In this document: one piece after another, positions 13,074 through 52,895 of the stretch
Numbering within the stretch: the stretch's first letter is position 1
Layout: every line of letters starts with the position of its first letter
Origin: Pseudomonadota bacterium
GTDB taxonomy: Bacteria > Pseudomonadota > Gammaproteobacteria > Burkholderiales > Burkholderiaceae_C
Length of the DNA: 64,000 nt
Assembly (NCBI GenBank): GCA_039798085.1
Contig: JBDKGR010000001.1
Coordinates: 2,147 to 66,146 of the forward strand
Direction: 5' to 3'
The notes under the pieces: generated by a model
Databases searched by the model: none
Told to the model about the DNA's origin: nothing
Seen by the model: only the letters and a program-made list of their open reading frames with translations
Translations under genes and position numbers: made by a program

Positions 13074-13167
13074 ATTGTCACAATATCATAGAAAATAAAA
13101 AATTAATAACAAATAAATAACAAATAAATAACAACAACTTTTTACAATGGGTTCGTACAATTATTTT

Positions 13168-20336: not shown

Positions 20337-20482
20337 GGTAGCCGCTCCGATAATAAGGTCGTTACAAAGGGCTGCATGGTAGCAAATCCCATTTTTACTA
20401 CAGCGCCACGCATAATTGATTACCATTAAGGTCGCTTTTGAAGCGTAGTAATCGTTGTAATCGTTGTAATCCTAGTAACGCT

Positions 20483-20944
20483 ATGCCTATGTCACCAATC
20501 GAAAACATTGAAAACATTGAAAACATTGCAAATCTTGTGTATGTCTCCAGTGCGGCATTACCTATCACGCGGGATAAGCTCCTTCATGTGTTGGAACGAT
20601 CTCGACAGCGCAACAAAGAACACCACGTTACCGGTGTTTTATTATTTGATGCGGGCAACTTTATGCAGTTTATCGAAGGACCTGCGGCGGGTTTGGAAAT
20701 TATTTACCACCACATTAAGCATGATCCGTTGCACACTGGCATCATCGAATTGTCCCGAGAAACCAGCCATGAACGCATTTTTGACCAATGGGCAATGGGC
20801 TTTCGGGCATTTAACGATGTCGAAATCAGCGATTCGTGGTTGTACGATGAACTCTTGGAAGCAAAAGTAACCCATCACATACGAGATACCAGTTCCGCCG
20901 CTATTTTGCTGCACGGGTTTTGGTCTCGTGGTTTAAGAAAATAG
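20483..20944 (+). CDS. Stand-alone BLUF (blue-light sensing using FAD) protein
   Basis: LVYVS (Tyr), RNKEHHVTGVLL, FMQFIEG (Gln), DPLH and WAMGF (Trp/Met). Confidence 0.9.
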   Translation: MPMSPIENIENIENIANLVYVSSAALPITRDKLLHVLERSRQRNKEHHVTGVLLFDAGNFMQFIEGPAAGLEIIYHHIKHDPLHTGIIELSRETSHERIFDQWAMGFRAFNDVEISDSWLYDELLEAKVTHHIRDTSSAAILLHGFWSRGLRK

Positions 20945-20950
20945 ATAAAT

Positions 20951-21000
20951 AAGCTCCTAACGCCCGTGGAATAAGCGTTAGCAGCTCCTAAATAAATAGC
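20951..21000 (-). repeat. Dispersed ~50-bp quasi-palindromic repeat, intergenic copy between convergent BLUF and cphA' genes
   Basis: The reverse complement gctatttatttaggagctgctaacgcttattccacgggcgtta matches copy 1 at about 34/43 positions (hand count) and contains the hairpin gctcctaacgc...gcgttagcagc. Confidence 0.85.
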
Positions 21001-21016
21001 AGCAACAACAGCAAAA

Positions 21017-23188
21017 TCAATACGGGGTTTTCTTCGGATTCGATTCAAACGTCCGCAAACCTGCGCCAATCAGCTCAGGGGATATGCCCAACGCCCACGC
21101 TGCCGCCACCGCTGCCATCACCATTTCTGGTTGCGAAGCCTTCTCCGGTTTCAAGGATTGCAACGCAAATAAAGCGACTTCTTCTCCACCGTGCGCCAAA
21201 ACAATGCAGCCATCGCGCAAAAATACCGCCCGTTCGCCTGCCGCGCGGTGTTCAACAAGGACGCTGTGCTGCGCATCCAGCCCATAAAAAATGACTTTTC
21301 CATCGCACAACGCCGCCATTTCTACGACTTGGGGGTCGGCAACATTCAATACGGCCGTTCCGCTGGGCAAAATCACGTCCACTTGGGTGCGGACGACTTT
21401 GTAGGTTTGTTCGGCATCGAAAATATCGAATTCTGCAAGCGATTCTTGCCAACTCACATCGGTCACCACACCCACGCTGCATTTATCGTAAGCCAAACCT
21501 TCAGCCAAAATCATGGCACTGGCATTTTCAAATACCGCCGCTTGCACTGAACGGTTCATTAACAGGCGTTGCCCGGCTTCCCAATGGGCGCAATTTTTGG
21601 ATTCGACTTGCCGCCCATCCAAATAAAGACCTTCACTGCACGCCAGCCCAACGTGCTTGCCGCTGATATGGACTAACCACGCCACCAGCCGCGCGATGCG
21701 TCCGGTTTTTTGCGTTCCGGTAATGCCGATGATGGGGATACGCCCATCGCGCTCTGCTTGGAAGAGGTGCGCAATAATCGCTTTTCCTACGGGGCGACCT
21801 TCGCCGTTAGCGGGTTTGATGTGCGATAACAATCCGGGGCTGGCATTAACTTCAATCACCGCCGCGCGTTGGCTTTGAATGGGTTTCGAAATATCGTCCA
21901 ACACCATATCGATTCCGGCAATATCCAAGCCCACAATCCGCGCGGCGAGGGCAGCGGTGGCGGCAACGCTGGGGTGCATGGAATCGGTCACATCAAAGGC
22001 AACATTGCCATTGCGCTGAATCAAAATTCGATGCCCTTTGTTCGGAATCGATTGGGGGGTTAGCTTTACGCGCTCTAATTCTAATAACACCTCGCCCGAT
22101 TCGCTCGGAATCACGAGATTGAGCGGAAACGCTTCGCCCGAACCACGCCGAGGGTCACCGTTGATTTGCAAATCGGCTAATTGGTCGATGGTGGAAATGC
22201 CATCGCCCACCACCCACAGCGTTTCGCCACCTGCTGCGGCTACCACTTGCTTGCCCACCACCAGCAAGCGATGTTCGTTACCGGGGATGAATTTTTCCAC
22301 AATCACGCTGCTACCGCCGCCTTTGCGGTGCGCTAGGGCAAAAGCGGCTTCGACGTCGCTTTGCGTGCGCAAATCCAGCGACACGCCGCGCCCGTGGTTG
22401 CCATCGTAGGGTTTCAATACGACGGGGATTCCAATATCTTGCGCAGCCTCCCATGCAGCCGCAGCGCTTTTGACCAATTCGCCTTCAGGAACCGGTACGC
22501 CACAGGCTTTGAGGAGCGATTTGGTCAAATCTTTATCGCTGGCAATTTCTTCGGCGATTGCGCTGGTTTGATCGGTTTCTGCCGTCCAAATGCGGCGCTG
22601 GTTGATGCCGTAGCCCAGTTGCACGAGGTTGCCTTCGGTCAGGCGAATGAAAGGAATTTTGCGATCAATCGCCGCATCCACAATGTGCGAGGTGCTGGGG
22701 CCCAGCATTAAATCATCGGCTTTTTCGCGCAAATCGGCGATGGTGGCGGCTACGTCATAATCCGTGCCATTGATGGCGGCTACGACCAAATCCCGCGCCG
22801 CATAGAGCGCTTGGCGACCAATTTCTTCTTGGCGCGTGCGAAATGCCAGCTTGTAAATCCCGCGTTGGGAAGTTTGGCGTGTTTTGCCGAATCCGGTACG
22901 CATTCCGACCAAATTCTGCAATTCCAGCGTGACGTGTTCCAGAATATGTCCGGCATACGTTCCCTCGCGCACGCGCTGCAAGAATCCACCGTATACGCCC
23001 GGGCTGCAACGGTGTTCTACTAAACTCGGTAAAAACGCCGTCAAGCGTTCATAGAACCCCTCTAGGGTGTTGGAAGGGTAATCTTCTAAACTTCCAATAT
23101 CTACCCATGCTTCGATAACCGGACGGTATGTCCAGATATTCGGGCCTCGAAGGTGCTTGACCTTCAAAATTTCAATTCTTTTTGTCAT
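21017..23188 (-). CDS. cphA: Cyanophycin synthetase-like partner (CphA'/CphA2-type, shortened C-terminus, degenerate P-loop)
   Basis: HLRGPNIW, HILEHV, LGPST and KPYDGNHGRG; the P-loop reads GITGTQKTG and the final Mur-ligase domain is absent. Confidence 0.88.
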   Translation of the reverse strand: MTKRIEILKVKHLRGPNIWTYRPVIEAWVDIGSLEDYPSNTLEGFYERLTAFLPSLVEHRCSPGVYGGFLQRVREGTYAGHILEHVTLELQNLVGMRTGFGKTRQTSQRGIYKLAFRTRQEEIGRQALYAARDLVVAAINGTDYDVAATIADLREKADDLMLGPSTSHIVDAAIDRKIPFIRLTEGNLVQLGYGINQRRIWTAETDQTSAIAEEIASDKDLTKSLLKACGVPVPEGELVKSAAAAWEAAQDIGIPVVLKPYDGNHGRGVSLDLRTQSDVEAAFALAHRKGGGSSVIVEKFIPGNEHRLLVVGKQVVAAAGGETLWVVGDGISTIDQLADLQINGDPRRGSGEAFPLNLVIPSESGEVLLELERVKLTPQSIPNKGHRILIQRNGNVAFDVTDSMHPSVAATAALAARIVGLDIAGIDMVLDDISKPIQSQRAAVIEVNASPGLLSHIKPANGEGRPVGKAIIAHLFQAERDGRIPIIGITGTQKTGRIARLVAWLVHISGKHVGLACSEGLYLDGRQVESKNCAHWEAGQRLLMNRSVQAAVFENASAMILAEGLAYDKCSVGVVTDVSWQESLAEFDIFDAEQTYKVVRTQVDVILPSGTAVLNVADPQVVEMAALCDGKVIFYGLDAQHSVLVEHRAAGERAVFLRDGCIVLAHGGEEVALFALQSLKPEKASQPEMVMAAVAAAWALGISPELIGAGLRTFESNPKKTPY

Positions 23189-25298
23189 GACCATAATTTT
23201 AGAAAACGAAAATGAAAATGTATTAGCGACATTAGAGCTTGATCTTGATGCACGCCTCCATTTTGTCAAAGGCTCGGTGGTTTTAACCGATAAGCGCATT
23301 GTGAGCGAAGAATTGGGTCTATCGCGCGAATGGAATTTGCACCCAGAATTGCAATTACACCACCACGATCATGCTGGTGTGGGGCATCTTGAATTGGTTG
23401 ATTCCAGCGGGCTGTTAGCTACATGGCGTTTTACGCTGGGGCACAATTTGGATGCAATGCGGTTAGTGAATGCGTTTTACGCCAAACCCATCGCCGAAGA
23501 AACTTCGTTTGCTTCAGAAAATACACCGACCCCTTCTACTTGGATTTTGTTTCGGTTATGGCGTTTTACCAAACCCTACAAAGGAGAATTGCTACTGGGT
23601 TTTATTTTGATGCTATTGGGAACGGCAGCGCACCAAATCCCGCCGTATTTAACGATTCCTTTGGTGGATGAGGTGCTGATTCCTTTTCAAAACGGGCAAC
23701 AAATTCCGGCGGCTACGGTCGCGTGGTATTTGAGTGGCTTACTGGGTGCGGCGATATTGGCATGGGCACTGGGGTGGGCGAAAAAATACGTGTTGGCACG
23801 GGTCTCTGAACGCATCGCCGCCGATTTACGCACCACGACCTACAACCATTTAATGCAGCTCTCATTGGAATACTTTGGTGGTAAGCGCACGGGCGATTTG
23901 CTTTCCCGCATCGGTAGTGGCAGTGACCGGATCGCCGTGTATTTGTCGCTGCACCTCACCGACTTTGCCAGCGATGTGGTGATGATTGTGATGACTGCCG
24001 TCATTTTGTTTACCCTCAACCCGTATTTGGCGCTGATCACACTGGTTCCTTTGCCTTTTATTGCGTGGTTGATTCATGTGGTGCGTTACAAATTGCGCAC
24101 GGGCTTTGAAAAAATCGACCGTGTATGGGGTGAGGTAACCAATGTTCTAGCCGATACCATCCCCGGCATTCGGGTGGTGAAGGCTTTTGCGCAGGAGCGG
24201 CGCGAATCCCAGCGTTTTCAGGATGCGAATCGTGCCAATTTGCACGTTAATGACCGTTTGAACCAAATTTGGGCCTTGTTTTCCCCCACGGTTTCTTTAT
24301 TGACGGAAGTCGGTTTGCTGGTGGTGTGGGCGTTTGGTATTTGGCAAGTCTCCAAGGGCGAAATCACGGTGGGAATGTTGCTCGCCGCCATTGCTTATAT
24401 CAGCCGCTTTTATGGACGACTGGATGCCATGAGCACGATTGTTTCGGATACGCAAAAAAGTGCCTCGGCTGCCAAGCGCATTTTTGATATTTTGGATCAT
24501 GTCTCTAGCGTCCCCGAACCTGCGAACCCTGTTCATATCGGCAAAGTGAAAGGCAAAATCGAGATACGCGAAGCGGGCTTCCGTTACGGTAATCGGCAGG
24601 TGAATAAAGGCATCAACCTGACGATAGAACCCGGGCAAATGATCGGTTTGGTGGGGCATAGCGGTTCGGGTAAAAGTACCTTGGTGAATTTGATTTGCCG
24701 CTTTTACGATGTGAATGAGGGGGCAATTTGGGTCGATGGAGTCGATATTCGCAGCTACGCGATTTCTGATTACCGCCAAAATATCGGTTTGGTATTGCAA
24801 GAGCCGTTTTTATTTTTTGGCACGATTGCCGAAAATCTGGCCTACGGCAAACCCGATGCGACGCGAGAAGAAATCATCGCCGCTGCCCGTGCCGCCCACG
24901 CCCACGAATTTATTTTGCGCCTACCGCAAGGCTACGATTCGATGGTTGGGGAACGGGGACAAGGTTTGTCGGGCGGGGAACGCCAACGCATCTCCATCGC
25001 TCGCGCCTTGCTGATTGACCCGCGCATTTTGATTTTGGACGAAGCCACTGCCTCGGTCGATTCGGAAACCGAAAAAGAAATCCAAAAAGCCTTGGAAAAC
25101 CTCGTGCAAGGTCGTACCACCATTGCGATTGCGCACCGCCTTTCTACGCTGCACCGCGCGGATCGTTTGGTGGTACTGGATCGCGGTCGCATAGTGGAAG
25201 AGGGCACGCACGATGCGTTGATGGAAGCCGAAGGTGCGTATTACAAACTCTACCAAGCGCAAGCACGCAATGCAGCCGTGATGGTGGAGGAAGAATAA
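23187..25298 (+). CDS. Cyanophycin-locus ABC transporter (fused permease-ATPase)
   Basis: TM domain followed by GHSGSGKS, LSGGERQR and ILDEAT; adjacent to cphA genes. Confidence 0.92.
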   Translation: MTIILENENENVLATLELDLDARLHFVKGSVVLTDKRIVSEELGLSREWNLHPELQLHHHDHAGVGHLELVDSSGLLATWRFTLGHNLDAMRLVNAFYAKPIAEETSFASENTPTPSTWILFRLWRFTKPYKGELLLGFILMLLGTAAHQIPPYLTIPLVDEVLIPFQNGQQIPAATVAWYLSGLLGAAILAWALGWAKKYVLARVSERIAADLRTTTYNHLMQLSLEYFGGKRTGDLLSRIGSGSDRIAVYLSLHLTDFASDVVMIVMTAVILFTLNPYLALITLVPLPFIAWLIHVVRYKLRTGFEKIDRVWGEVTNVLADTIPGIRVVKAFAQERRESQRFQDANRANLHVNDRLNQIWALFSPTVSLLTEVGLLVVWAFGIWQVSKGEITVGMLLAAIAYISRFYGRLDAMSTIVSDTQKSASAAKRIFDILDHVSSVPEPANPVHIGKVKGKIEIREAGFRYGNRQVNKGINLTIEPGQMIGLVGHSGSGKSTLVNLICRFYDVNEGAIWVDGVDIRSYAISDYRQNIGLVLQEPFLFFGTIAENLAYGKPDATREEIIAAARAAHAHEFILRLPQGYDSMVGERGQGLSGGERQRISIARALLIDPRILILDEATASVDSETEKEIQKALENLVQGRTTIAIAHRLSTLHRADRLVVLDRGRIVEEGTHDALMEAEGAYYKLYQAQARNAAVMVEEE

Positions 25299-25329: not shown

Positions 25330-26970
25330 ATGAACAATCAAAATTCTCTTTACTACGGAGATAACCTCAATGTATTACGTGAATCCATTGCCGATGAATC
25401 GGTGGATTTGATTTATCTCGATCCGCCATTTAATAGCGCACGGGATTACAACATTTTATTTGCATCACCCAAAGGGGCATCCAGCGAAGCGCAGATTACC
25501 GCCTTTGAAGATTCGTGGCACTGGAATCAGCAAGCGGAATCAGAATTCAACGAAATCATGCACCAGAGCAACACTGCTGTGGCGGAGATGATGGATGCAC
25601 TGCGCCGTTTTTTGGGTGAAAACGACATGATGGCGTATCTCACCATGATGGCGAATCGTTTACTGGAATTGCACCGTGTTTTGAAACCCACTGGAAACCT
25701 TTATCTGCACTGCGATCTTACCGCATCGCATTATTTGAAAATTGTATTGGATGGCGTTTTTGGAAAAAACAACTATCGCAGTGAAATTTCATGGTTACGT
25801 TCGCAACCAAAAAGTCACGGAACGACGAATTTTTCTAATTGCCGTGATATTATTTTCCGTTATGCGAAATCAGATCAAACAAAATTTTTCAAAGTTTATG
25901 GAAAATATAATAAAGATTATTTGAAGAACTTTTATAAATACCAAGATTCTGACGGAAGAATATATAGCCTTGATAATCTTGCGAATCCGAATAAAAAACG
26001 CCCTAATCTCACTTATGAATTTTTGGGTGTAACACGGGTTTGGCGTTGGACAAAAGAACGAATGCAAAAAGCATGGGAGGACGGTTTAATTGTTCAATCC
26101 AAGACGGGAGCTATTCCACGCTTTAAGCGTTATTTGGATGAAATGCACGGGCAGCCGATAACGAATAACTGGAATGATATTGAACATTTACATGGAAGTA
26201 ATGACGAATTTTTGGGTTATCCAACCCAAAAACCGGTAGCGCTTTTAGAGCGCATTATCGAAGCCAGTACCAATGAAGGCGATGTCGTTTTAGACCCATT
26301 TTGTGGCTGCGGTACAGCCGTTCATGCGGCGCAAAAATTGGGACGACAATGGATTGGAATCGACATTACCCATTTAGCCGTAAGCCTGATTGAAAAGCGT
26401 CTGCGCGATGCGTTTCCCGATAGCGTTTTTGCCATTGAAGGCACGCCCAAAGATTTGGAAGGGGCGCGGGATTTGGCGAATCGGGATAAATACCAATTTC
26501 AATGGTGGGCGTGTTCGCTGGTTAATGCCCAACCGTATCAAGGCAAGAAAAAAGGCGCGGACGGTGGTATTGATGGGCTGATTTATTTTCAAGATGGTTC
26601 TGGCGATAAAAACGATAAACAGCACAAAAAGATTATTGTTTCCATTAAAGGTGGTGGCAATGTGAACGTGGCAATGGTGCGGGATTTGGCACACGTTGTT
26701 AAGCGCGAAAAAGCCCATATCGGATTATTCGTGACGCTCACCCCGCCGACCAAACCCATGCTCGTAGAAGCGCTGAAAGAAGGTTATTACGAAAGCCCCT
26801 TGTTTCCACCGAATGCGTTTCCTGCGATTCAAATTCTCTCGGTCGAAGGTTTATTGGAGGGGACAGAACGCCCGCGTTTCCCCGATTTGGGACGTGGCAT
26901 GACCACCTTTAAGAAAGCAAAATTGGAAGAGAAAACAATCGATCAAAAAGGATTTTTCGATGAATCTTGA
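25330..26970 (+). CDS. Beta-class N4/N6 DNA methyltransferase with C-terminal Mrr/restriction-endonuclease-like domain
   Basis: Motif IV DPPF near the N-terminus, YPTQKP, motif I LDPFCGCGT, then GADGGIDG...IIVSIKGG. Confidence 0.87.
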   Translation: MNNQNSLYYGDNLNVLRESIADESVDLIYLDPPFNSARDYNILFASPKGASSEAQITAFEDSWHWNQQAESEFNEIMHQSNTAVAEMMDALRRFLGENDMMAYLTMMANRLLELHRVLKPTGNLYLHCDLTASHYLKIVLDGVFGKNNYRSEISWLRSQPKSHGTTNFSNCRDIIFRYAKSDQTKFFKVYGKYNKDYLKNFYKYQDSDGRIYSLDNLANPNKKRPNLTYEFLGVTRVWRWTKERMQKAWEDGLIVQSKTGAIPRFKRYLDEMHGQPITNNWNDIEHLHGSNDEFLGYPTQKPVALLERIIEASTNEGDVVLDPFCGCGTAVHAAQKLGRQWIGIDITHLAVSLIEKRLRDAFPDSVFAIEGTPKDLEGARDLANRDKYQFQWWACSLVNAQPYQGKKKGADGGIDGLIYFQDGSGDKNDKQHKKIIVSIKGGGNVNVAMVRDLAHVVKREKAHIGLFVTLTPPTKPMLVEALKEGYYESPLFPPNAFPAIQILSVEGLLEGTERPRFPDLGRGMTTFKKAKLEEKTIDQKGFFDES

Positions 26971-27418: not shown

Positions 27419-28479
27419 ACAACAATACGAACAACAATAAAACCCTTGTTTTAGGTTTTGAATCGTCCTGTGACGAAACGGGTGTGGCGTTGGTCGAATA
27501 TGCCGAAAAAGGCGTTCCGAAGCTGCTAGCGCACGCGCTGCATTCGCAAATCACCATGCACCAAGCGTTTGGCGGAGTCGTACCGGAATTGGCAAGCCGC
27601 GACCACATCCGCCGCACCCTGCCCTTGACGCAAGAGGTGCTGACCCAATCCGGTAAAACGTTGGCGGATGTCGATGTGGTTGCCTTTACGCGCGGGCCCG
27701 GATTGGCAGGGGCTTTGCTGGTGGGTGCGGGCGTGGCGTGTGCGTTGGCGGCGGCGTTGGATAAACCCGTGCTGGGCGTGCATCACTTGGAAGGACATTT
27801 GCTTTCGCCGTTTTTGAGCGCCGATCCGCCCGAATTTCCCTTCGTTGCCTTGCTGGTATCGGGCGGACACACCCAGTTGATGCGCGTGGATGGTGTGGGG
27901 CATTACGCCATCCTTGGCGAAACGATTGACGATGCAGCGGGGGAAGCCTTTGATAAATCCGCCAAAATCATGGGGCTGGATTATCCGGGTGGTCCGTTGC
28001 TAGCGAAAATGGCGCAAGAGGGAAGCCCCACGGCGTACAAACTGCCGCGCCCTTTGCTGCATAGCGGGAATTTGGATTTTTCGTTTGCCGGATTAAAAAC
28101 GGCGGTGTTGGTGCAATCGCAAAAAATCCAGCCAGCAGATTTTCCTGATTTGGCTGCATCAACCCAAGCGGCGATTGTGGAGGTGCTGGTGAAAAAATCG
28201 CTTTCCGCGCTCAAAGAAACGGGACTCAAACGGTTGGTTGTGGCGGGCGGCGTGGGCGCGAATCGGGAATTACGCACCCAACTCAATGCCGCGTGTGCGG
28301 AGCGCAAAGTGCGTGTGCATTACCCCGAATTGCATTTGTGTACCGACAATGGAGCCATGATTGCCCTCGCCGCCGCCATGCGCCTGCAAAGTGGTGTGCA
28401 GCAGGCGCACAAAAACTATGCGTTTGATGTCAAACCGCGTTGGGAGTTAACGTCATATCTCTCCCCAATAAACGCTTAG
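27415..28479 (+). CDS. tsaD: tRNA t6A37 threonylcarbamoyltransferase subunit
   Basis: [39 protein letters not shown] and CTDNGAM. Confidence 0.97.
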
Positions 28480-29554
28480 AAAGCTGTGCTAAACGCTTAT
28501 TAGAACGCATGGATTCAATCCGTAAACCATTATTATAAATATCCTTATAACAATGGTTTTTATCATCCCATAATTGTTCTTTTTGAATTCCTTCGGGTTC
28601 AAATCCTAATTCCACTGTTTGATTTTGAGCAGATATATTATCACCATAAACGATGCTGGTGATTTTATGCAATCCTATACGGTTGAATGCAAAATCTATA
28701 GCAAGTAATGACGCTTCTAATCCAGCTCCAAGGGGCGTTTGTATTTTTTCTGTATCTGGTATTCCAACTAATAATTCAGCACGTTGATGCAAAAAACTAA
28801 TCGCAGTCAAACTCGCTAAACCAATAGTACGGGAATCAATTTTTCGTTCAATTACCCAATCTAGGGTATTGGTTTCACAGGGGTGCTTTTCTGTTGATTT
28901 TTTCAATGCAGCATCTAACGCCGACAATGTGGAATGTTGGAATAAATTCCGGTTGTAGCGCGTGGTAAATTCTAGATTCCGAAAACACGATTGTAAAAAT
29001 GGCGCATGGTGTGGTTCTTGGCGGCGGAGGATAAGATGTTTCCCTTCAATGGGTAAAAGCCATTCGGGGGAAACTTCCATTTGTAAACGCGGTGCATTGA
29101 TACGAGAAAAAGCGCGAAATGCTTCTTTCACATTCCCCTTCTTTTTTAAGGCTTGCCCCAAATTTTGCCAAGCAGGGGCGTAGTCTGCTTGTAGAGACAA
29201 TGCTTTTTCGATGCAAAGAACTGCTTTGGGATAATTTTCCAGACTCATCCATGCGTTACCCAGAATGTTGTAGAGCAGCGGTATGGAGTGGTTGGGTTCG
29301 GCATCTAATACGATTTTGCATTCTGCGATAGCGGAGCGTGCTTCACCGAGTTCACATAAAGCATTTGCATAATTGAGTCGAATATCGGTACGCTCAGGTG
29401 CTGCCGAGCTGGCTTTTTGAAACCACGGCAGCGCCTCAATTAGTCGCCCTGATTGTGCCAACGCCACTGCGGTGATGTGCGCAGCATTTACACCATCGCC
29501 ATTTTTTTCACAAATACGGGCTTGTTCAAGAAGCTGTGGGGTGGTGTTATTCAT
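28430..29554 (-). CDS. TPR-repeat protein fused to a RimJ/RimL-type GNAT N-acetyltransferase
   Basis: N-terminal TPR helices ([18 protein letters not shown]) and a C-terminal GNAT ([11 protein letters not shown]...N...LGFEPEG); AT-rich. Confidence 0.75.
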
Positions 29555-29563
29555 AACTTGATG

Positions 29564-29593
29564 TGTTCCCGCACAATTTAAGGTGCAGGAACA
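29564..29593 (-). terminator. Stem-loop just downstream of the giant surface-protein gene
   Basis: 11-bp stem tgttcccgcac/gtgcaggaaca (one G-U pair on the minus-strand RNA) with no long U tract. Confidence 0.5.
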
Positions 29594-29613
29594 TGGCTCG
29601 CTCGGGTTAGGTG

Positions 29614-32600
29614 TTAATACACAAAGAAGTTATTAGCCGTTAAATCCGACAAGGTCGTAGTTCCTGTCAACGTGACGGTTGCTAACTGCGTCACATCCAG
29701 ACCGTTTGTGCCCGTGTGCGCACTACCCACATACCAAACCTGATTTTCAGTACCATTGTTGAACACCAGTACCAATCCGTTATCCATACCAGTAACCGTT
29801 GCACTTGCCATTGCTGCATCAACGGCTGCGGCAGAATTCCAAGTAGGTTGGGCATCGGTAATGACCCAAATGTTGTCATCGGCGGTAGGTATAATTCCGG
29901 CTGCCGTTCCGCTATTGAACACTTTGGTGGATGTTCCGGTTAAACGCAACTCACCTCTATTGTCCCCAACAGGGGTATCTTTGAACGCCAAAATATCCGT
30001 GTTAGTGAATGTGGAAACCGATTGGGTATGAAGGTACTTGTAAATCGCTTGAACGGCTGGGTTTCCTGCAACTTCTCTTCCATCGGTATACGCGGCATTT
30101 GCCGGAGTTGCCAAATCGGTAATCGAATTCGGATTTCCATTGTTGGCAGTATAAGTTACATCAAAAGCCGTTGCGGCAGGTGACCCCAAAGTCAAAATCA
30201 CTTTGTTGGAATCTGCACCCGTTCCGATTACTGCGTTAGTTACTGTATTTCCCGTCACTGTGTAATCACCTATTTCAGGTGTTCCTGTTAAGGCTTCAGA
30301 ATAAGTAAGCGTTACAGTTGTTCCGTTTGCAGATATAGGTGCGTTCATCCAAGGTGAAGTGGCATCTGCGACTATATCCAAAACAATCGCATTAGGATCG
30401 GTCAAGCCCGGAAACGGTATATTCGTTCCATCTTGTAGAATTGCTCCGGTTGGGATTTCCAAATGGTATTTATTGCCAGCTAAAAGTTCAGTACAACTGA
30501 AACTCAAACGTCCCTGATTATTTGAGGAATAAAAATAGACTTTACTGGTATCGGTCACGTCAATGGTAATATCTGCACCACCCGAATCATTTTTCAACAC
30601 CAGATTACCAGTACCTGCATGAACAGGGTGACTAAAGGTGGTGTTATAGCTGGAATTAGGTTCCATCCTGCTTGGTCCATTTCCGGTGTACATCAACGTA
30701 GGGAATCCATCGTAGGAAATATCCGATGCTCGCAGTGTATAGTCATACGCGGCATTCGCTGGATTTGCCAAATCGGTAATCGAATCGGGCGTTCCATTGG
30801 TAGCGGTATAAGTCACACCTGTGAGGCTGGCAGTGGTAACCGGAGTTCCCAAAGTCAAAATCACTTTGTTGTTATCTAAACCTGCCCCGATAGATGCCGA
30901 AGTAACCGTATTGCCGCCTACCGTGTAATCCACCACTTCAGCCGTTCCCGCCAACGCTTCGGAATAGGTAAGGGTCAAAGTAGCTCCATCAGCAGATACA
31001 ACGGCGTTTTGCATACGGGGTTGCATAGCATCCGCTACGACATTCAAAACAAGTGCAGTAGGGTCTGTCAAACCACCAAATGGCGTATTAGTTCCATTTT
31101 GCAATATCGCTCCGGCTGGAATTTCTAAATGGTAATTATTGCTAACTACAAGCCCAAGATTACTGAGATGTAGCTCGCCGTAACCATTTGTATAGGAAGA
31201 GAAACTGACTTTACTTGCATCCAATACGTCAATGGTGATGTCTGCCCCAGCAACAGTATCATTTTTCAACACAAGATTTCCAGCGCCTGCGTGAATTGGA
31301 CTGCTAAACCTAGCAATAGTAATATTGCCCGAAGTAGGTTCCACCCTGATTGCATACCCCGTGTACAACAACGTCAAAATTCCATCGTAGGTAATTTCCG
31401 AGGGTTGTAACGTAGAGGTATAAGCAGCATTCGCTGGAGTTGCCGCATCTTTAATGGAATTCGGCGTTCCATTCGTAGCGGTATAAGTCACCCCCGTGAG
31501 GCTGGCACTGGTAACCGGAGTTCCCAAAGTCAAAATCACTTTATTGCTATCCGCGCCCGTTCCGATAATTGCCGCAGTAACGGTATTTCCAGCTACTGTG
31601 TAGTCGATTTTCTCCACCGTTCCGGTTAAGGGTTCGGAATAGATTATGGTTAAAGTTGTACCATCAGCAGATACAACGGCACTTCGCATATGAGGTGGCA
31701 CGGCATCCGCGACCACATTCCAAACAATCGCATTGGGGTCAGTCAAACCACCGAACGGTGCATTGTCACTATTGCGCAATATCGCTCCGGCTGGAATTTC
31801 CAAATGGTACTTCTGACCGACTACAAGCCCACTATTTCGCAAACTGACATCCCCTCGTTGCACACCGCCGCTATACGTATAGGAGTTAAAAATAACCTTG
31901 TTGGTATCGGTCACATCAATGGTGATGTCTGCTCCACCCGAATCATTTTTCAGCACCAAGTTACCAGTACCTGCATGAACAGGGCTGCTGAAAGTAGGGA
32001 TATTCCAATACGAAGTAGGATCAACTGTTCTCGGATTTCCGGTGTACATCAACGTAGGGAATCCATCGTAGGTAATTTCCGAGGGTTGTAACGTAGAGGT
32101 ATATGCAGCATTTGCTGGATTTGCCGTATCTTTAATCGAATTCGGCGTTCCATTCGTAGCGGTATAAGTTACCCCCGTGAGGCTGGCACTGGTAACGGGA
32201 GTTCCCAAAGTCAAAATCACTTTGTTGTTATCTGCACCCGTTCCGATAATTGCCGCAGTAACGGTATTGCCGCCTACTGTGTAATCACCCAATTCCACCG
32301 TTCCGGTTAAGGCTTCGGAATAGGTAAGGGTCAAGGTCGTTCCATTTGCCGCTACCGAAGCATTTTGCATCCAAGGTGCTCTAGCATCCGCAACGACATT
32401 AAAAACAAGTGCAGCAGGGTCAGTCAAACCGGCAAATGGTGCATTGTCACTATCGCGCAATACCGCTCCGGCTGGAATTTCTAAATGGTACTTCTGACCG
32501 ACTACAAGCCCAGCATCTCGCAAATTGAAATTCCCTCGTTGTAAACCGCTACCATCCGTATAAGAAACAAAAATAACTTTAGCCGTATCCAATACATCAA

Positions 32601-35600
32601 TGGTGATGTCTGCTCCACCGGTATCATTTTTCAACACCAAGTTACCAGTGCCTGCATGAACTGGGCTGCTGAAGGTAACAACATTCGTCAGAATAGGATC
32701 AGTTTGTTGCATACCGGTGTGCATCAGCGTCAAAATTCCATCATAGGTAATTTGTGATGCTGGTAATATGTCACTATACGCAGCATTGGAAGGAGTTGCC
32801 GTATCTTTAATTGAATCCGGCGTTCCATTCGTAGCGGTATAAGTCACATCCATGCGAATGGCACTGGTAACGGGAGTTCCTAAAGTCAAAATCACTTTGT
32901 TGTTATTTGCACCCGCTCCAATTACCGCATTGGTAACCGTATTGCCGACTACCGTGTAATCCGATGCTTCTGCCGTTCCCGCTAATGCTTCGGAATAGAT
33001 TATGGTTAAAGTTGTACCATCAGCAGATACAACAGCGTTTTGCATATGAGGGTGCGTGGCATACGAGACCACATTCAAAACAATCGCATTGGTGTCAGTT
33101 AAACCACCGAACGGTGCATTGTCACTATTGCGCAATACCGCTCCGGCTGGAATTTCTAAATGGTACTTTTGACCGACAACAAACTCAATATTATTGAAAT
33201 ACAAAGACCCGTGGCTGATGAAATTCCAAAAACTGACTTTATTGGTATCGGTCACGTCGATTATGATGTCTGCTCCACCGGTATCATTTTTCAACACCAA
33301 ATTACCAGTGCCAGCATGAATAGGGCTGCTAAATTGTGCACTAAAACTCGTCGTAGTAGGCATAATTGTTTCCGGCTGTCCCGTGTATATCAACGCAAGA
33401 AATCCATCGTAGGAAATATCCGAGGGTTGTAACCTAGAGGTATATGCAGCATTGGAAGGAGTTGCCGCATCTTTAATGGAATTCGGTGTTCCATTGGCAG
33501 CGGTATAAGTCACGTCCGTGCGAATGGCACTGGTAACGGGAGTTCCTAAAGTCAAAATCACTTTATTGCTATCCGCGCCCGTTCCGATAATTGCCGCAGT
33601 AACGGTATTTCCAGCTAATGTGTAATCACCAGCCTCTGCCGTTCCCGCTAATGCTTCGGAATAGATTATGGTTAAAGTTGTACCATCAGCAGATACAACG
33701 GCACTTCGCATATGAGGTGGCGTGGCATCCGCGACAACATTCAAAACAATCCCTGTGGGGCTACTCAAACCTGCAAAAGATTCATTATTTGCATCCAATA
33801 TTGCGCCCGATGGAATCGTCAAATGGTAGTTATGACCCGCTACAAGCCCTAACGCGGAAGTATGCAGTTTCGTTTTTCCTTGCGATGTTCGGTAGGTTGC
33901 AACCTCAATTTTGCTCGTATCGGTTATATCAATATTGATATTGACTGGATTCACAGTGGAGTCATCGACCAAAACTACCGTACCCGTTCCGGCGTGAACT
34001 GGTTCGTTAAAAATGATTTCAGTCATTGGTGAGGTCGGATCAATTCTAAACGTTTGATTGGGGGTGACCAATATAGGAGCTGTACCAGATGTAGAGGGAG
34101 GGGCAACCGTTGAACCATTCGTAACCGCAGCCAGCATTTGGTCGACAGCATTATTGGGTGTGGTTGCCGCATCTTTAATCGAATTAGCTGTTCCAGCGGA
34201 AGCGGTGTAAACCAAGTTGGATACGGTAGCTGCGCTATCCAATGCGGTTGCCAATGTCAGGGTAACTTGATTATTGGTAGTGCCTGTAATAGCAGCCGTT
34301 GCCCCTGTGAGGTTCACACCCGTAGCAGCGTAATCGGCTACTTCAGGCGTTCCAGTCAAGGCTTCGGTGTACGTGATAGTTAAAGTTTTGCCATCTGCTG
34401 CTACAGCAGCACTTCGCATAAAAGGCGGTGTGGCATCTGCTACGACATTAAAAACAATCCCTGTTGGGCTACTCAAACCCGCAAAAGATTCATTATTTGC
34501 ATCCAATATCGCGCCCGATGGAATCTCTAAATGGTAGTTATGACCCACTACTAACCCAAGATGGGAAAGGTTCAAGCTCGATATTCCATGTTGGTTAGAC
34601 GAATTAGTCGAGAATGAAACTTTACTGTTATCCGTTACATCCACGTTGATATTTGATCCACCTGAATCATTGACCAAAACCACAGTACCCGTTCCTGCAT
34701 GAACTGGCTCGTTAAATTCAAGCCAAGGAGTCATCGTCGAATCAACTCTAATGGTTTGGTTGGGGAGGGTTACTAAAACAGGAGCTGTACCAGATGTAGA
34801 GGGAGGCAAAACCGTTGAACCATTCGTAACCGCAGCCAGCGTTTGGTCGACAGCATTATTGGGTGTGGTTGCCGCATCTTTAATCGAATTAGCTGTTCCA
34901 GCGGAAGCGGTGTAAACCAAGTTCGATACGGTAGCTGCACTATCTAACGCCGTTGCCAATGTCAGGGTAACTTGGTTATTGGTAGTGCCTGTAATAGCAG
35001 CCGTTGCCCCTGTGAGGTTCACACCCGTAGCAGCGTAATCGGCTGCCTCAGGTGTTCCGGTCAAGGCTTCGGAATAGGTGATAACAATTTGCGTACCATC
35101 CGCAGAAACTGCTGCACTGCTCATGGTGGGTGCGGTGGTATCGGCAACAACGGGCGCAACCGTTGAACCATTGGTGAAATTGGTAGTCAATATTTGAGTG
35201 GTTGCAGCGGTATTGGGTGTTGGGGTCGCAGCATCCTTAATCGAATCGGAAACCCCGTTATTAGCCGTATAAGTGAATAATCCAGAAAGCGTTGCCCCTT
35301 GAATAACAGGCGTACCTAATGTCAAAATCACTTTATTGTTATTTGCACCCGTTCCAATCACTGCATTCGTAATGGTGTTGCCAGTCCAAGTGTAATCCGA
35401 TGCTTCTGCTGTTCCAGTCAAAGGTTCGGAGTATGTAATGGTCAAAGTCACCCCATCTGCTTCTAAGGCAGCACTCAATATTGTGGGGGCGGTGGTATCA
35501 GGTGCTGGAACAGTCGAATTATTCGTAACCGTCGCCCATGTTTGCGTAGTTGCGGCATTGGGTGTTGGAGTTGCCGCATCTTTAATCGAATTAGGTGTTG

Positions 35601-37314
35601 TTCCAGCGGAAGCGGTGTAAACCAAGTTCGATACGGTTGTACCTGTAATCACAGGCGTTCCCAACGTCAAAATTACGGTGTTACCACTCAATATGGCATT
35701 GGTGATGGTGTTGCCTGTAATCGCATAATCGGTTGCTTCGGGTACTCCGGTCAATGGTTCGGAATAGGTTAGAGTTAAAGTCGTTCCGTTGGCTGCAAGA
35801 ACTGCACTGCCCATAATGGGTATAACCAAATCCGATTGTGGTGTTGGATAAGAATACGTTGGCTCAGGTTTTGGGGAAGAAGGGGTGGGAACACCAACCG
35901 CAACATCACCTGTAGTTGCATTACTAACCGCAGTTTGCAGAGAACTACCCGTGAAATTATGAGCCACAGTAGCAAAATTGCCACTTCCACCCGCAGCAGC
36001 AATAAGTTCATCCGTTGCATTGCTTTGTGCTACCACGGCGACTTGTGCCAGTTTGGTGATGTCCTGTGCAGCTTGTGTAGCTACATTACTCGCTGATGTG
36101 ACAGCCGCAATTTGACCAGCTTGTGTAGCCGTAGTCGGAAGTCCCAATTGCGTAGCAGATGATTGCACTACGCCTGTCAGCAATGTCGTATCCGTAAGGT
36201 CTATCACCGTTGATGAATGGCTAATCAAACTTGCCAGTGTATCGGTTGTTGCCTCTGCCGCATGAACGGCGTTGACGTTGGAACTGCTGGCATCAAGCGT
36301 GTTGCCGATTTGGGTAATGATGTTTTGGATTTGCAGAGCCGTTTTTTGTACTGCCAATGCAGTGGCTTTATCTGCTGTACTGGCACTGGAATCGGCTAAA
36401 ACTGCTAACGGATCGTAGGTTAACAGGTTGATGTTGCTAGGCAACCCCAAGGCTTTTTGCACGATGGATGTAGTGTTCGCCAATTCAGCCAGAGATTGCG
36501 CCTTGCTTCCAACGGCTTCAATTAAGGTGGTGATTGGATTGATGGTTGTAGAGCCAGGTAATGCAGTCATGACCCCTTTGAAGGGCTTTCCAGTCAAAAT
36601 ATCCGTACCACCGGATGCAATCAGTTTTCCAATACCTGCATTCAGTGGCAAGTTGTAATGTCCTGAAGCGTCAGTGGTAGCAGAAAATTCTCCGTCATTA
36701 AGTTTGCCATCTCCATTGGCATCAACAAAAATGGTGGCATCTTTGACATAGCCGTCAACTACGCTACCACGGATGCCATTGCTAGATAAGATCGTACTCA
36801 ATGTCGAAAAACCAGCTTGACCATTGCTCAAACTACTTGTGCTTGCATCAACATTTTGAACCAGATTTTTAACGGTTTGTAATACCGATGCACCCATAAA
36901 TAAATCGGTTTTTCCAGTGGTCGTAAGCTGGTCTAAAAACGAATTAAGGGCAGTGGTGCGGTTGTCCAACGTTACCCCCGCACTGCCCCCTATTTGCAGG
37001 CACGTAACAACGACTTCAGCCCAAGAAATTTTACTACCACCAATGTAGTTAGCGATTTCAGTGGAGTCTGTTGTACTGAGAGAAATGCCCAGACCATTTT
37101 GGGCGAGTTGACCGACAAGGGTCGCTGGACTGGATGCTTGGGCCTGTTTACCCAGAAAATCGTTAATACCTTCAATGAGCGGGAAGTACTTTCCATCAGA
37201 CCCTGCTAAACCCTCTAGTTCCTGTAATTGGGCTGCATTTGCGCCATGACCTGTGATAAGGATGGCAATTTTTTGTAATACCGTTTGGATGCTGGTCGTC
37301 ATTGAAATACCCAT
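29614..37314 (-). CDS. Giant repetitive surface/S-layer-like adhesin with 10 SwmB-like repeats and 7 Big_5/SbsA-like Ig domains
   Basis: 2566-aa Thr/Ala/Asn/Gly-rich ORF; repeats SAxVxAdGxxLTxxYSExL and FxxPVHAGTGxxVL...YHLEIPxGAIL; DANGDGKLNDGE Ca-binding-like loop; no Sec signal; C-terminal LTANNF. The start may be 37302. Confidence 0.85.
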   Translation of the reverse strand: MGISMTTSIQTVLQKIAILITGHGANAAQLQELEGLAGSDGKYFPLIEGINDFLGKQAQASSPATLVGQLAQNGLGISLSTTDSTEIANYIGGSKISWAEVVVTCLQIGGSAGVTLDNRTTALNSFLDQLTTTGKTDLFMGASVLQTVKNLVQNVDASTSSLSNGQAGFSTLSTILSSNGIRGSVVDGYVKDATIFVDANGDGKLNDGEFSATTDASGHYNLPLNAGIGKLIASGGTDILTGKPFKGVMTALPGSTTINPITTLIEAVGSKAQSLAELANTTSIVQKALGLPSNINLLTYDPLAVLADSSASTADKATALAVQKTALQIQNIITQIGNTLDASSSNVNAVHAAEATTDTLASLISHSSTVIDLTDTTLLTGVVQSSATQLGLPTTATQAGQIAAVTSASNVATQAAQDITKLAQVAVVAQSNATDELIAAAGGSGNFATVAHNFTGSSLQTAVSNATTGDVAVGVPTPSSPKPEPTYSYPTPQSDLVIPIMGSAVLAANGTTLTLTYSEPLTGVPEATDYAITGNTITNAILSGNTVILTLGTPVITGTTVSNLVYTASAGTTPNSIKDAATPTPNAATTQTWATVTNNSTVPAPDTTAPTILSAALEADGVTLTITYSEPLTGTAEASDYTWTGNTITNAVIGTGANNNKVILTLGTPVIQGATLSGLFTYTANNGVSDSIKDAATPTPNTAATTQILTTNFTNGSTVAPVVADTTAPTMSSAAVSADGTQIVITYSEALTGTPEAADYAATGVNLTGATAAITGTTNNQVTLTLATALDSAATVSNLVYTASAGTANSIKDAATTPNNAVDQTLAAVTNGSTVLPPSTSGTAPVLVTLPNQTIRVDSTMTPWLEFNEPVHAGTGTVVLVNDSGGSNINVDVTDNSKVSFSTNSSNQHGISSLNLSHLGLVVGHNYHLEIPSGAILDANNESFAGLSSPTGIVFNVVADATPPFMRSAAVAADGKTLTITYTEALTGTPEVADYAATGVNLTGATAAITGTTNNQVTLTLATALDSAATVSNLVYTASAGTANSIKDAATTPNNAVDQMLAAVTNGSTVAPPSTSGTAPILVTPNQTFRIDPTSPMTEIIFNEPVHAGTGTVVLVDDSTVNPVNINIDITDTSKIEVATYRTSQGKTKLHTSALGLVAGHNYHLTIPSGAILDANNESFAGLSSPTGIVLNVVADATPPHMRSAVVSADGTTLTIIYSEALAGTAEAGDYTLAGNTVTAAIIGTGADSNKVILTLGTPVTSAIRTDVTYTAANGTPNSIKDAATPSNAAYTSRLQPSDISYDGFLALIYTGQPETIMPTTTSFSAQFSSPIHAGTGNLVLKNDTGGADIIIDVTDTNKVSFWNFISHGSLYFNNIEFVVGQKYHLEIPAGAVLRNSDNAPFGGLTDTNAIVLNVVSYATHPHMQNAVVSADGTTLTIIYSEALAGTAEASDYTVVGNTVTNAVIGAGANNNKVILTLGTPVTSAIRMDVTYTATNGTPDSIKDTATPSNAAYSDILPASQITYDGILTLMHTGMQQTDPILTNVVTFSSPVHAGTGNLVLKNDTGGADITIDVLDTAKVIFVSYTDGSGLQRGNFNLRDAGLVVGQKYHLEIPAGAVLRDSDNAPFAGLTDPAALVFNVVADARAPWMQNASVAANGTTLTLTYSEALTGTVELGDYTVGGNTVTAAIIGTGADNNKVILTLGTPVTSASLTGVTYTATNGTPNSIKDTANPANAAYTSTLQPSEITYDGFPTLMYTGNPRTVDPTSYWNIPTFSSPVHAGTGNLVLKNDSGGADITIDVTDTNKVIFNSYTYSGGVQRGDVSLRNSGLVVGQKYHLEIPAGAILRNSDNAPFGGLTDPNAIVWNVVADAVPPHMRSAVVSADGTTLTIIYSEPLTGTVEKIDYTVAGNTVTAAIIGTGADSNKVILTLGTPVTSASLTGVTYTATNGTPNSIKDAATPANAAYTSTLQPSEITYDGILTLLYTGYAIRVEPTSGNITIARFSSPIHAGAGNLVLKNDTVAGADITIDVLDASKVSFSSYTNGYGELHLSNLGLVVSNNYHLEIPAGAILQNGTNTPFGGLTDPTALVLNVVADAMQPRMQNAVVSADGATLTLTYSEALAGTAEVVDYTVGGNTVTSASIGAGLDNNKVILTLGTPVTTASLTGVTYTATNGTPDSITDLANPANAAYDYTLRASDISYDGFPTLMYTGNGPSRMEPNSSYNTTFSHPVHAGTGNLVLKNDSGGADITIDVTDTSKVYFYSSNNQGRLSFSCTELLAGNKYHLEIPTGAILQDGTNIPFPGLTDPNAIVLDIVADATSPWMNAPISANGTTVTLTYSEALTGTPEIGDYTVTGNTVTNAVIGTGADSNKVILTLGSPAATAFDVTYTANNGNPNSITDLATPANAAYTDGREVAGNPAVQAIYKYLHTQSVSTFTNTDILAFKDTPVGDNRGELRLTGTSTKVFNSGTAAGIIPTADDNIWVITDAQPTWNSAAAVDAAMASATVTGMDNGLVLVFNNGTENQVWYVGSAHTGTNGLDVTQLATVTLTGTTTLSDLTANNFFVY
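30365..35820 (-). repeat. Intragenic tandem domain array with a period of about 0.67-0.71 kb
   Basis: For example 34077-34366 and 34782-35075 are near identical, and gtcaaaatcactttgttgtt / ggaatttctaaatggta blocks recur. Confidence 0.92.
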
Positions 37315-37333
37315 TCTTCAGAGTGGAGGAAAG

Positions 37334-37373
37334 AAAATAAGCAGGCACAAGCGATTTTGTGCCTGCTTATTTT
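37334..37373. terminator. Perfect 17-bp inverted repeat (bidirectional terminator-like)
   Basis: aaaataagcaggcacaa-gcgatt-ttgtgcctgcttatttt. Confidence 0.75.
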
Positions 37374-43338: not shown

Positions 43339-43998
43339 ATGCAACGTCAAGGGGTTTCTCTTTTTTTAGCGGCTAGTTTGGCGGGTTTATTAGGCGGGGG
43401 CTTGGGAGGGTGTGCCAATATCCCCCCCGAAGCGCCAGAACTTTCGGCTCAACTGGGAATGCGCATTTCGGCTTTAGAAGCCGCCCATACCCGCTTGGTG
43501 CAGGAGTTTTTCGTCGCCAAAAGGAAACGGATTGACGAATTTTTACAAGATGTTTGGGTTCCCACTTTTTCTCAAGAGTTTTTTAACGACCCCAAAATTG
43601 ATGGCGTATGGAAGCAAGTAATCCAATCACAAGACCCCAAAGACCGGAGAAAGTTTATCGGTATTGCTGGGAGTAAACTGCAAGAACGCATCAATAAAAA
43701 ACGCACCGAATTATTGCAACCCTTGGATGCACTCGAAGCCTCAATGCTGCGAAAATTGCAAGCAGAATACAATCAAACCCGTGCTATCAATAATACATTA
43801 ACTTCTTTTTTACAATCCACATCCAAAGTCGAAGAAAATCGCAAACGCTATATGGATATGGTCGGCGTACCCGATAAAGGCTTGGATAGCATGATTGGTG
43901 AAACCGAATCGGCTATCATTGATTTAATAAGCACCAAAAATGATACCGATAAATACATTCTGAAAATCAATAATTTAATAAATAAAATTAATAAATAA
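43339..43998 (+). CDS. Hypothetical helical lipoprotein
   Basis: Signal peptide with lipobox LGG-C and a predominantly amphipathic helical mature region. Confidence 0.72.
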   Translation: MQRQGVSLFLAASLAGLLGGGLGGCANIPPEAPELSAQLGMRISALEAAHTRLVQEFFVAKRKRIDEFLQDVWVPTFSQEFFNDPKIDGVWKQVIQSQDPKDRRKFIGIAGSKLQERINKKRTELLQPLDALEASMLRKLQAEYNQTRAINNTLTSFLQSTSKVEENRKRYMDMVGVPDKGLDSMIGETESAIIDLISTKNDTDKYILKINNLINKINK

Positions 43999-51413: not shown

Positions 51414-51468
51414 TACAATCCAATCACTAAGATTTTTGCCATTTTTTTAACCTACGGAGTGACTCCAC

Positions 51469-52773: not shown

Positions 52774-52829
52774 AATTAGCGAAGTTAGCGAAATTTCGCT
52801 AATCAGCAGCACTTTTTTCTTCTCTGCCG

Positions 52830-52867: not shown

Positions 52868-52895
52868 ATCGGGGATTTTTGTGGAAGAATTCCGC

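Follow-up and report, generated by a model that had tools for sequence, protein, structure and literature searches.

Seven Big_5-like domains that differ on one predicted sheet face in a giant Burkholderiales repeat protein, a candidate multi-specific adhesion array

In giant bacterial surface proteins, Big_5 and SWM repeats are usually regarded as stalk material. Constant frameworks with concentrated, aromatic-rich variation are known from other immunoglobulin (Ig)-type sandwiches, namely the variable domains of antibodies and T-cell receptors (TCRs) and the arrays of Dscam and the protocadherins, and in antibodies this variation sits in the apical BC, C'C'' and FG loops. The periscope proteins are single-chain rods of recombining tandem Ig-like repeats which, in the available part of their description, are highly identical and vary in number (PMC9704523). 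Psh of P. putida, a protein of the RTX-DUF4214 type secreted by a type I secretion system (T1SS), binds O-antigen and shields cells from phages, and the available part of the report mentions Ig-fold cargo on DUF4214 proteins and describes no variable repeat array in Psh (bioRxiv 10.64898/2026.09.02.748959). The locus analysed here lies in a 64,000-nucleotide stretch of Pseudomonadota bacterium assembly GCA_039798085.1 (contig JBDKGR010000001.1, positions 2,147 to 66,146; hereafter the window), and encodes a giant repeat protein in which seven Big_5-like domains alternate with SWM spacers. It is likewise a single-chain rod of recombining Ig-like repeats, but differs from the periscope proteins in varying one face of each repeat, and from Psh, as described there, in having a variable repeat array. 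In contrast to antibodies and TCRs, the variation occupies a sheet face and a hairpin, not three apical loops, and in contrast to antibodies, Dscam and the protocadherins, all variants are encoded by the genome in one chain; systems for rearrangement, splicing or hypermutation were not found. We tentatively favour, ahead of all rival explanations, a multi-specific adhesion array displayed on an SWM stalk.

The first-pass annotation, made from the letters alone, had proposed seven Ig-like domains in one surface protein, with conserved frameworks and two segments that differ in every copy. A single open reading frame (ORF) indeed holds all seven, each of the quoted framework motifs occurs seven times, and the quoted segments were found in place. 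The segments vary in both sequence and length (14-17 amino acids (aa) for segment 1, 16-21 aa for segment 2), and their amino-acid identity among copies 3-7 is 0.30 and 0.31, respectively. In the same copies it is 0.86 in the framework that separates the segments, 0.72 in the one that follows them and 0.77 in the SWM spacers. The frameworks, described as nearly invariant, are so within copies 3-7, while copies 1 and 2 form a second subtype with 38-50% overall identity to the others. The domains and the modules around them are as follows.

29614..37314 (-), giant repeat protein ORF of 2566 aa, containing all seven Ig-like domains
36775..37314 (-), N-terminal all-helical domain (aa 1-180), helical by structure model, perhaps remotely related to DUF4214-bearing N-termini and a candidate cell-surface anchor
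35920..36774 (-), second N-terminal module (aa 181-465), a small beta domain with a DGY motif and then a helical bundle
35200..35829 (-), SWM_repeat spacers S1 and S2 (PF13753 / TIGR02059)
34843..35139 (-), SWM spacer S3
34441..34794 (-), Big_5-like domain G1, with segment 1 at 34717-34767 and segment 2 at 34558-34617
34138-34434 (-), SWM spacer S4
33733..34089 (-), Big_5-like domain G2, with segment 1 at 34012-34062 and segment 2 at 33850-33906
33436-33726 (-), SWM spacer S5
33067..33435 (-), Big_5-like domain G3, with segment 1 at 33334-33381 and segment 2 at 33187-33234
32770-33060 (-), SWM spacer S6
32392..32769 (-), Big_5-like domain G4, with segment 1 at 32674-32715 and segment 2 at 32512-32574
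32095-32385 (-), SWM spacer S7
31711..32094 (-), Big_5-like domain G5, the copy used for the structure model, with segment 1 at 31993-32040 and segment 2 at 31831-31893
31414-31704 (-), SWM spacer S8
31036..31413 (-), Big_5-like domain G6, with segment 1 at 31309-31359 and segment 2 at 31156-31206
30739-31029 (-), SWM spacer S9
30370..30738 (-), Big_5-like domain G7, with segment 1 at 30637-30684 and segment 2 at 30490-30537
30082-30366 (-), SWM spacer S10
29614..30081 (-), C-terminal domain of 155 aa without a family match, 72% identical in the orthologue fragment P0017

The pattern was compared with that of the wider family, using the best 150 of 893 profile matches together with further searches; all anchors were present in 1018 of the 1237 domain matches (163 proteins), which were retained, and P0004, a fragment of the same giant protein, was excluded. 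With the segments fixed as in the giant protein, its framework-minus-segment contrast ranks first of 90 Big_5 arrays (0.46 versus a mean of 0.11, standard deviation (sd) 0.12), in a test on repeat pairs of 60-92% framework identity that is biased toward the giant protein, whose segments defined the windows. When the windows are instead the two most variable ones of each array itself, the giant protein ranks second of 108 (0.42 versus a mean of 0.20, sd 0.06), and in ten of the other top-13 arrays these windows lie at roughly the same two places. The D-E segment spans 17-22 aa in all seven copies, compared with a modal 14 aa (612 of the other family domains). Composition, compared against 895 other family domains, follows the proposed richness in Y/S/G/N/R/W/F for segment 2 (0.61 versus 0.36, p 1e-8) and departs from it for segment 1 (0.32 versus 0.27, p 0.26); the share of Y/W/R/H is 15% versus 4% in segment 2 (p 2e-7) and 10% versus 3% (0.10 versus 0.03) in segment 1, the sole enrichment of the latter. 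Buried or scattered variable residues and uniform divergence, which the first-pass annotation had named as findings that would speak against its reading, were not what was observed: divergence is far from even along the repeats, and, by prediction, the variable residues lie exposed and together on one face. The framework-versus-segment pattern is real, confined to one predicted face, and among the strongest of the arrays examined.

The seven copies are best called a divergent Big_5-like subfamily (PF13205, CopC/SbsC-type sandwich). PF13205 matches four of them with E values of 0.0007-0.03 and 15-21 bits, the best being 20.8, all under the cut-off of 23.6, and gives no match in the other three; a Big_5 family profile recovers all seven. 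A profile of the seven copies retrieves 893 proteins at E<=0.001, and of ten of these that were scanned, nine lie above the Big_5 cut-off and the tenth is the orthologue P0017. The same profile found no match among Protein Data Bank (PDB) sequences at E<=1. An AlphaFold2 (AF2) model of G5 has a predicted local distance difference test score (pLDDT) of 81 and is an Ig-like sandwich, with strands at residues 22-24, 30-35, 67-73 and 79-85. Its best structural matches are the N-domain of H. orenii AmyB (PDB 3bc9; Z 9.3, root-mean-square deviation 2.7, 93 aligned residues, 17% identity), CopC (Z 7.6) and domains of SbsC (Z 6.9); Foldseek gave no match at E<=0.001 for either this model or that of the N-terminal domain. 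The AmyB domain is a single domain on an enzyme and, according to the available part of the source, aids the binding of insoluble starch (PMC5735674).

In the G5 model, segment 1 makes up strands A' and B, and segment 2 the D-E hairpin. Strand adjacency was checked by covariation over 1182 domains (effective number 910), which couples strand B with strand E (pairs 30-78, 32-76 and 34-74), closes the D-E hairpin (68-75 and 70-75), and couples strand A with strand B (12-36, 13-33 and 13-35), and the two segments therefore make up one contiguous sheet. With outward positions assigned from the hydrophobic alternation of the family, outward sites of the B/D/E face have a between-copy identity of 0.13, and those of the C/C'/F/G face one of 0.76, across all seven copies; for copies 3-7 only, the values are 0.12 and 0.91, respectively. 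The term "CDR-like" (complementarity-determining region-like) in the first-pass annotation does not fit this geometry, which places the segments in strands of the A-B-E-D sheet and the D-E hairpin tip instead of the BC, C'C'' and FG loops; in the predicted fold, they are a variable sheet face plus a lengthened hairpin, not antibody-type apical loops.

Synonymous divergence is equal along this part of the domain (0.52 in segment 1, 0.53 in the framework between the segments and 0.53 in segment 2), while non-synonymous divergence is 0.47, 0.09 and 0.44, respectively. The framework between the segments is thus as diverged synonymously as the segments themselves, and it is therefore purifying selection, not recent conversion, that maintains it. 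The share that lies in exact tracts of at least 30 nt is 48% for spacers S3-S9, 44% for the linkers, 23% and 11% for the frameworks, and 4% and 1% for the segments; judged from such tracts, conversion is real outside the segments, for example in spacers and linkers. In fixed-site codon models, the ratio of non-synonymous to synonymous rates (omega) is 0.17-0.22 in the frameworks and 0.05-0.14 on the opposite outward face. With a shared synonymous rate it reaches 1.9 for outward B/D/E positions (p 0.03; nine sites including hairpin-tip sites), and 12-13, with a log-likelihood (lnL) gain of 11-16, for the eight outward strand sites. These comparisons show that one face has changed very fast, and positive selection on that face is likely, although model-dependent. 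The dN/dS comparison proposed in the first-pass annotation thus bore out fast non-synonymous change in the segments, and did not establish positive selection.

An explanation without a function for the variable face is relaxed constraint combined with gene conversion, in which the B/E/D face drifts, and conversion resets spacers and frameworks so that the segments come to look hypervariable. The concentration of identical tracts in spacers and flanks is in keeping with it, as is the lack of a significant family-wide face asymmetry once relatives are collapsed (83 clusters, mean 0.05, Wilcoxon p 0.15). Conversion, however, does not explain how the framework between the segments retains 86% protein identity at an equal synonymous divergence (pS 0.53), and the opposite face, likewise exposed, is under strong purification. 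Simple drift is further disfavoured because, across the family, the B/D/E columns vary no more freely than those of the other face (entropy 2.56 versus 2.76, 165 proteins), and drift predicts neither the hairpin elongation in every copy nor the four-fold enrichment in Y/W/R/H. We therefore regard this explanation as unlikely. A very improbable alternative is that diversification guards the tandem array against domain swapping and misfolding, to which highly identical tandem repeats are prone according to the available part of the periscope report (PMC9704523). Against it, the Big_5-like copies are never adjacent, the SWM spacers remain 70-89% identical within subtypes, near-identical Big_5 repeat arrays exist (P0002 and P0003), and change is restricted to one exposed face.

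The gene or a part of it was listed in 17 public runs, comprising 16 freshwater metagenomes and one microbial mat. Seven of these were compared, all as contigs, and the counts given here are among the differences listed. As the first-pass annotation had anticipated for strains and metagenomic reads, other runs carry different variants. Long contigs of runs X1 and X5 match the window without differences across the variable segments. In run X6, the flanks differ at 5/880, 7/610, 10/658 and 48/1241 letters. G1 is nearly constant in X6, X7, X8 and X9, with 0-3 differences over 199-365 nt (at least 99% identity where covered), and the segment 2 hairpin of G7 is identical in X10, a run from a different study and habitat. 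By contrast, a contig of X6 and X8 placed on G4 shows 35 differences over 229 nt, and at least 15 of these fall inside 49 nt of segment 2, with eight non-synonymous and three synonymous codon changes. A contig of X9 has a G3-like linker, then 45 unmatched letters that replace segment 1, followed by a framework like that of G4 and an end like that of G5. In X8, a G2-like contig departs from the reference within segment 2, with a matching joint in X6, and its loose end, read by hand, continues in frame into a D strand and tip that differ and are slightly longer. An eighth face is represented by P0017, a Logan fragment of 432 aa, with frameworks 63-77% and segments 18-53% identical to any copy in the window. 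The segments of G3, G6 and G7 are uncovered in X6, X8 and X9 at low depth, which was not counted as absence. These contig sequences fit a standing repertoire of faces, some widely shared and some private, that would be reassorted on a common framework, and the variation does not look like ongoing hypermutation.

A full-length orthologue was found neither in 40 relatives, nor in a further 158 genomes from the genus (19 of which show distant Big_5 matches only), nor among proteins of 1411-4491 aa, nor in scans of metagenome and genome contigs, from which records close to the window's genome were perhaps excluded. In the nearest sister genome, contig ends flank the locus on both sides, so that presence of the gene there cannot be told. 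A search for single-domain fragments for a deeper alignment gave three weak matches only.

The replacement of modules from strain to strain would also be expected if the B/E/D face belonged to a cell coat recognised by phage receptor-binding proteins or grazers, and were kept changing by negative frequency-dependent selection. Phage blocking by Psh, as described in the available part of its report (bioRxiv 10.64898/2026.09.02.748959), and the remotely DUF4214-like N-terminus of the giant protein are in line with such evasion or shielding. Seven faces at once would, however, offer more targets to an enemy, not fewer, the gain of aromatic and basic residues would suit binding better than hiding, and the constancy of G1 and of the G7 hairpin across runs from different studies is not in its favour; we consider it quite unlikely. 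Self or kin recognition, with faces that bind matching faces on neighbouring cells and a combination of faces that serves as an identity code, is a more distant prospect still. Precedents for such codes are Dscam, the clustered protocadherins and myxobacterial TraA, and the giant protein has seven faces that all differ, in combinations that vary between strains on a common framework, but no self-complementarity is evident in the faces.

Programmed diversification would be a further route to variable segments, and the genome does contain a complete diversity-generating retroelement (DGR) on contig C6 (2306-7394), consisting of a target, an avd-like ORF, a reverse transcriptase (PF00078) and a second target downstream. 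Its template (C6:3761-3868) corresponds to variable regions at 2993-3100 (15 of 17 mismatches at template A) and 5949-6050 (14 of 14), in genes that we take, from their motifs, to be DUF1566/Lcl-like. The template matches these two genes only, with no match to the giant gene. Silent cassettes were sought by blastn with 7-mer seeds, which compared the gene with the entire assembly and found no outside copy save one 42-nt match, and by a domain profile, which found only the seven in-gene copies in the assembly (88% complete). A DGR or cassette origin of the segments was therefore rejected, since the template fits other genes and outside copies are lacking from the 88%-complete assembly. Together with the long X1 and X5 contigs that cross the variable segments without differences, these results make diversification by the DGR or by silent cassettes barely credible, and as far as sequence comparison goes it is largely refuted. 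Related DGR target-like genes were seen on contigs C35, C27, C25, C71 and C47.

Export and anchoring are approached through the termini of the protein. A type I secretion cluster on contig C15 (16613-22658) contains two ABC-transporter-like ORFs, an HlyD above cut-off and a TolC-like ORF, the transporter-like and TolC-like ORFs being identified from their sequence starts, and no evident large substrate lies beside it. The C-terminal 155 aa likely carry a type I secretion signal, judging by their position and by the tails familiar from T1SS substrates. Hydropathy indicates no long hydrophobic stretch in the giant protein. Its N-terminal 480 aa share 42-45% identity with two Big_5 proteins, P0086 and P0121, the latter from a Ca. 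Accumulibacter cluster. Built from aa 1-182, a profile weakly matches, among about 220 proteins, the DUF4214 proteins P0142 (E 3.7e-6) and P0141 (E 0.0045), and a direct Pfam match to DUF4214 was not found in the N-terminal domain. The model of this domain gives a weak match to a phycobilisome-linker fold (Z 5.3) and middling helical matches, with RsaA not listed. The giant protein resembles DUF4214/RsaA-type surface proteins in having a helical terminal domain, perhaps remotely related to theirs, and differs in lacking the Pfam DUF4214 match. By analogy with such proteins, we infer type I export and anchoring to lipopolysaccharide.

The favoured adhesion array would accordingly be a type-I-secreted, surface-anchored giant protein, with seven domains of Big_5/CopC fold that share a common core and one conserved face, and in which the predicted outward A-B-E-D face peculiar to each copy is likely a distinct adhesion binding surface along a SwmB-type stalk. 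Export would proceed via the two-ABC/HlyD/TolC system of the genome and anchoring via the DUF4214-like N-terminus, and the variable face would bind ligands, most plausibly glycans or cell surfaces. The faces have most likely diversified by duplication of repeats, by selection for point substitutions and small indels in strands B, D and E, and by recombination, which would even out the spacers and shuffle modules from strain to strain without merging the variable faces.

Several observations weigh against this proposal. When the variable sites are given their own synonymous rate, omega is 0.98 (p 0.97), 0.38 (p 0.56) or 2.96 (p 0.30), none distinguishable from 1, and this model fits equally well or somewhat better (lnL gain 1.7-3.2), as relaxed constraint would have it; the omega test is in any case weakened by sites picked post hoc, by the small number of columns (8-9), by divergence near saturation and by recombination, which violates a single tree. 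Several inward positions of strand B vary as well, which suggests a loosened structure and likewise suits relaxed constraint. Segment 1 is without the Y/S/G/N/R/W/F enrichment of segment 2. The metagenome contigs are short, omit rare variants and cannot be joined into alleles, and some perhaps come from a co-occurring relative; over window positions 36052-37305, X1 and X5 also contain a second, lower-depth lineage about 83% identical in the N-terminal region, from a related species or a paralogue. The giant protein has neither a GGxGxD motif nor a PF00353 match that would mark RTX nonapeptides, the T1SS genes that would serve its export lie on a different contig, and the DUF4214 link is weak (hhalign probability 33%).

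The closest relatives are Big_5/SbsA arrays (PF13205), for example SBT05479.1 of Ca. Accumulibacter aalborgensis (P0121 cluster) and WP_161079835.1 of Duganella (P0142), which share the fold and framework motifs, and P0121 and P0086 also share both N-terminal modules. The giant protein differs from these arrays in that its copies score below the family cut-off, exceed theirs by 3-8 aa in the D-E segment, and take turns with SWM repeats. SwmB-type and RTX adhesins (P0184, P0185, P0187 and the Acinetobacter Bap-like P0186) share the SWM repeats and the DGY module; these relatives have no Big_5 match on record, whereas the giant protein has both repeat types, and P0184 and P0187 carry the RTX repeats that it lacks. 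P0121 likewise varies on the B/D/E face (0.25 versus 0.94 identity), and a minority of other arrays has the same variable face, for example P0019, P0036, P0056, P0057 and P0063. Before relatives were collapsed, arrays skewed toward B/D/E outnumbered those skewed oppositely by 19 to 5 of 106, which looked significant; after collapsing, the counts are 10 and 3 of 83 clusters (p 0.09), and the pattern thus recurs in a subclass of arrays without being general to the family. Over its seven copies, the giant protein has a face contrast of 0.63, about 2.6 sd higher than the mean of the clusters (0.05, sd 0.22). The share of F/W/Y on the variable face is 0.10 in 14 high-contrast arrays and 0.03 in the rest, partly as a by-product of selecting arrays by variation, and the mean per-column variation over 100 arrays has no peak at the two segments. 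Among the open-access full texts searched, none reported the pattern in Big_5 arrays.

It is possible, with greater reserve than for the adhesion array itself, that some Big_5 arrays are natural single-chain binder libraries, in which selection varies the A-B-E-D face of a fixed Ig-like scaffold and the copies are strung in series and reassorted between strains, and that this face was put to such use several times over in unrelated arrays (10 of 83 clusters, the Accumulibacter protein among them). Big_5 would then be not a presumed spacer but a module for multi-specific recognition whose binding face is mapped. The pattern singles out one surface, with eight residue positions, as candidate ligand sites in a family of hundreds of uncharacterised proteins. 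If the adhesion array is real, uncultured freshwater bacteria would encode several specificities per chain without a hypermutation system, and the domain would provide a natural side-face binding scaffold; if the neutral explanation is right, the protein would be an adhesin of the ordinary kind, notable for the way its conservation is distributed. In the course of the comparison, two further kinds of array were noted. In P0022 (Paenibacillus) and P0146 (Cohnella), two subtypes of domain take turns, and the D-E region of one of them is variable and rich in aromatic residues; the cluster of P0146 is named S-layer-homology protein. P0002, P0003 and P0036, apparently from one genome, comprise near-identical Big_5 arrays (47 and 15 matches) beside an array in which hydrophobic residues vary on the B/E faces, a contrast provided by nature.

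The modules of the giant protein run from two N-terminal modules (aa 1-180 and 181-465) through ten SWM_repeat units and seven domains of the second type to the C-terminal domain. The SWM_repeat assignment passes the cut-offs of both profiles (155 bits versus 27 for PF13753, and 44.6 versus 40.1 for TIGR02059). Alternation with SwmB-like spacers, as first proposed, holds for the array, where the seven Big_5-like domains fill the last seven inter-spacer intervals among S3-S10, but three of the ten SWM spacers fall outside strict alternation. Misassembly is unlikely because the longest exact repeat within the gene is 82 nt and difference-free X1 contigs span several units. The module at aa 181-465 is common to other Big_5, SWM and RTX surface proteins, and a DGY-type beta module as in the giant protein also occurs in a likely lipoprotein of 504 aa encoded elsewhere in the genome (G000:C177:1075-2586), which ends with two CxxCH cytochrome c motifs.

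The second ATG of the giant gene (37302) is the likelier start, judging by where the homologues P0121 and P0086 begin, and a clear ribosome-binding site was seen ahead of neither ATG. A perfect 17-bp inverted repeat with a 6-nt loop (37334-37373), terminator-like, lies 20 nt upstream of the first ATG and directly after a peptidase M15 gene; a promoter and terminator scan gave a chance-level result. Contigs of the RNA run X5 span 29541-37343, ending near the gene ends, while those of the DNA run X1 continue beyond. The X5 coverage is only a weak hint of transcription, because it comes from a single study and the inverted repeat lies at the upstream end.

The host genome (G000) measures 2.4 Mb at 50% GC, and the named members of its TypA cluster (Rhodoferax, Polaromonas, Variovorax and Ramlibacter) point to a bacterium of the Comamonadaceae. 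A lifestyle as partner in a phototrophic consortium was considered and found no support: the 88%-complete assembly encodes complex I, two terminal oxidases and two methyl-accepting chemotaxis proteins (MCPs), with no phytochrome or reaction-centre match, and pointers to a specific partner cell were not found in it. Within the window, the giant gene is followed after 59 nt by a fusion of TPR and GNAT acetyltransferase domains (28430-29554, -), which weakly resembles sugar acetyltransferases of the PseH type and might modify the surface protein or its glycans. Neither Pfam nor NCBIfam gave a match for two ORFs, one of 510 aa (51427-52959, -) and one of 219 aa (43339-43998, +). An MmeI-like restriction-modification protein (4977-7991, -) is encoded amid metabolic genes, and a DNA methylase-Mrr fusion (25330-26970) lies between a divergent ABC transporter and a DUF1854 gene. 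The remaining observations concern two cyanophycin-synthetase-like genes beside this transporter (17730-25298, transporter included), and two S41 carboxy-terminal proteases in tandem (11574-14637, -).

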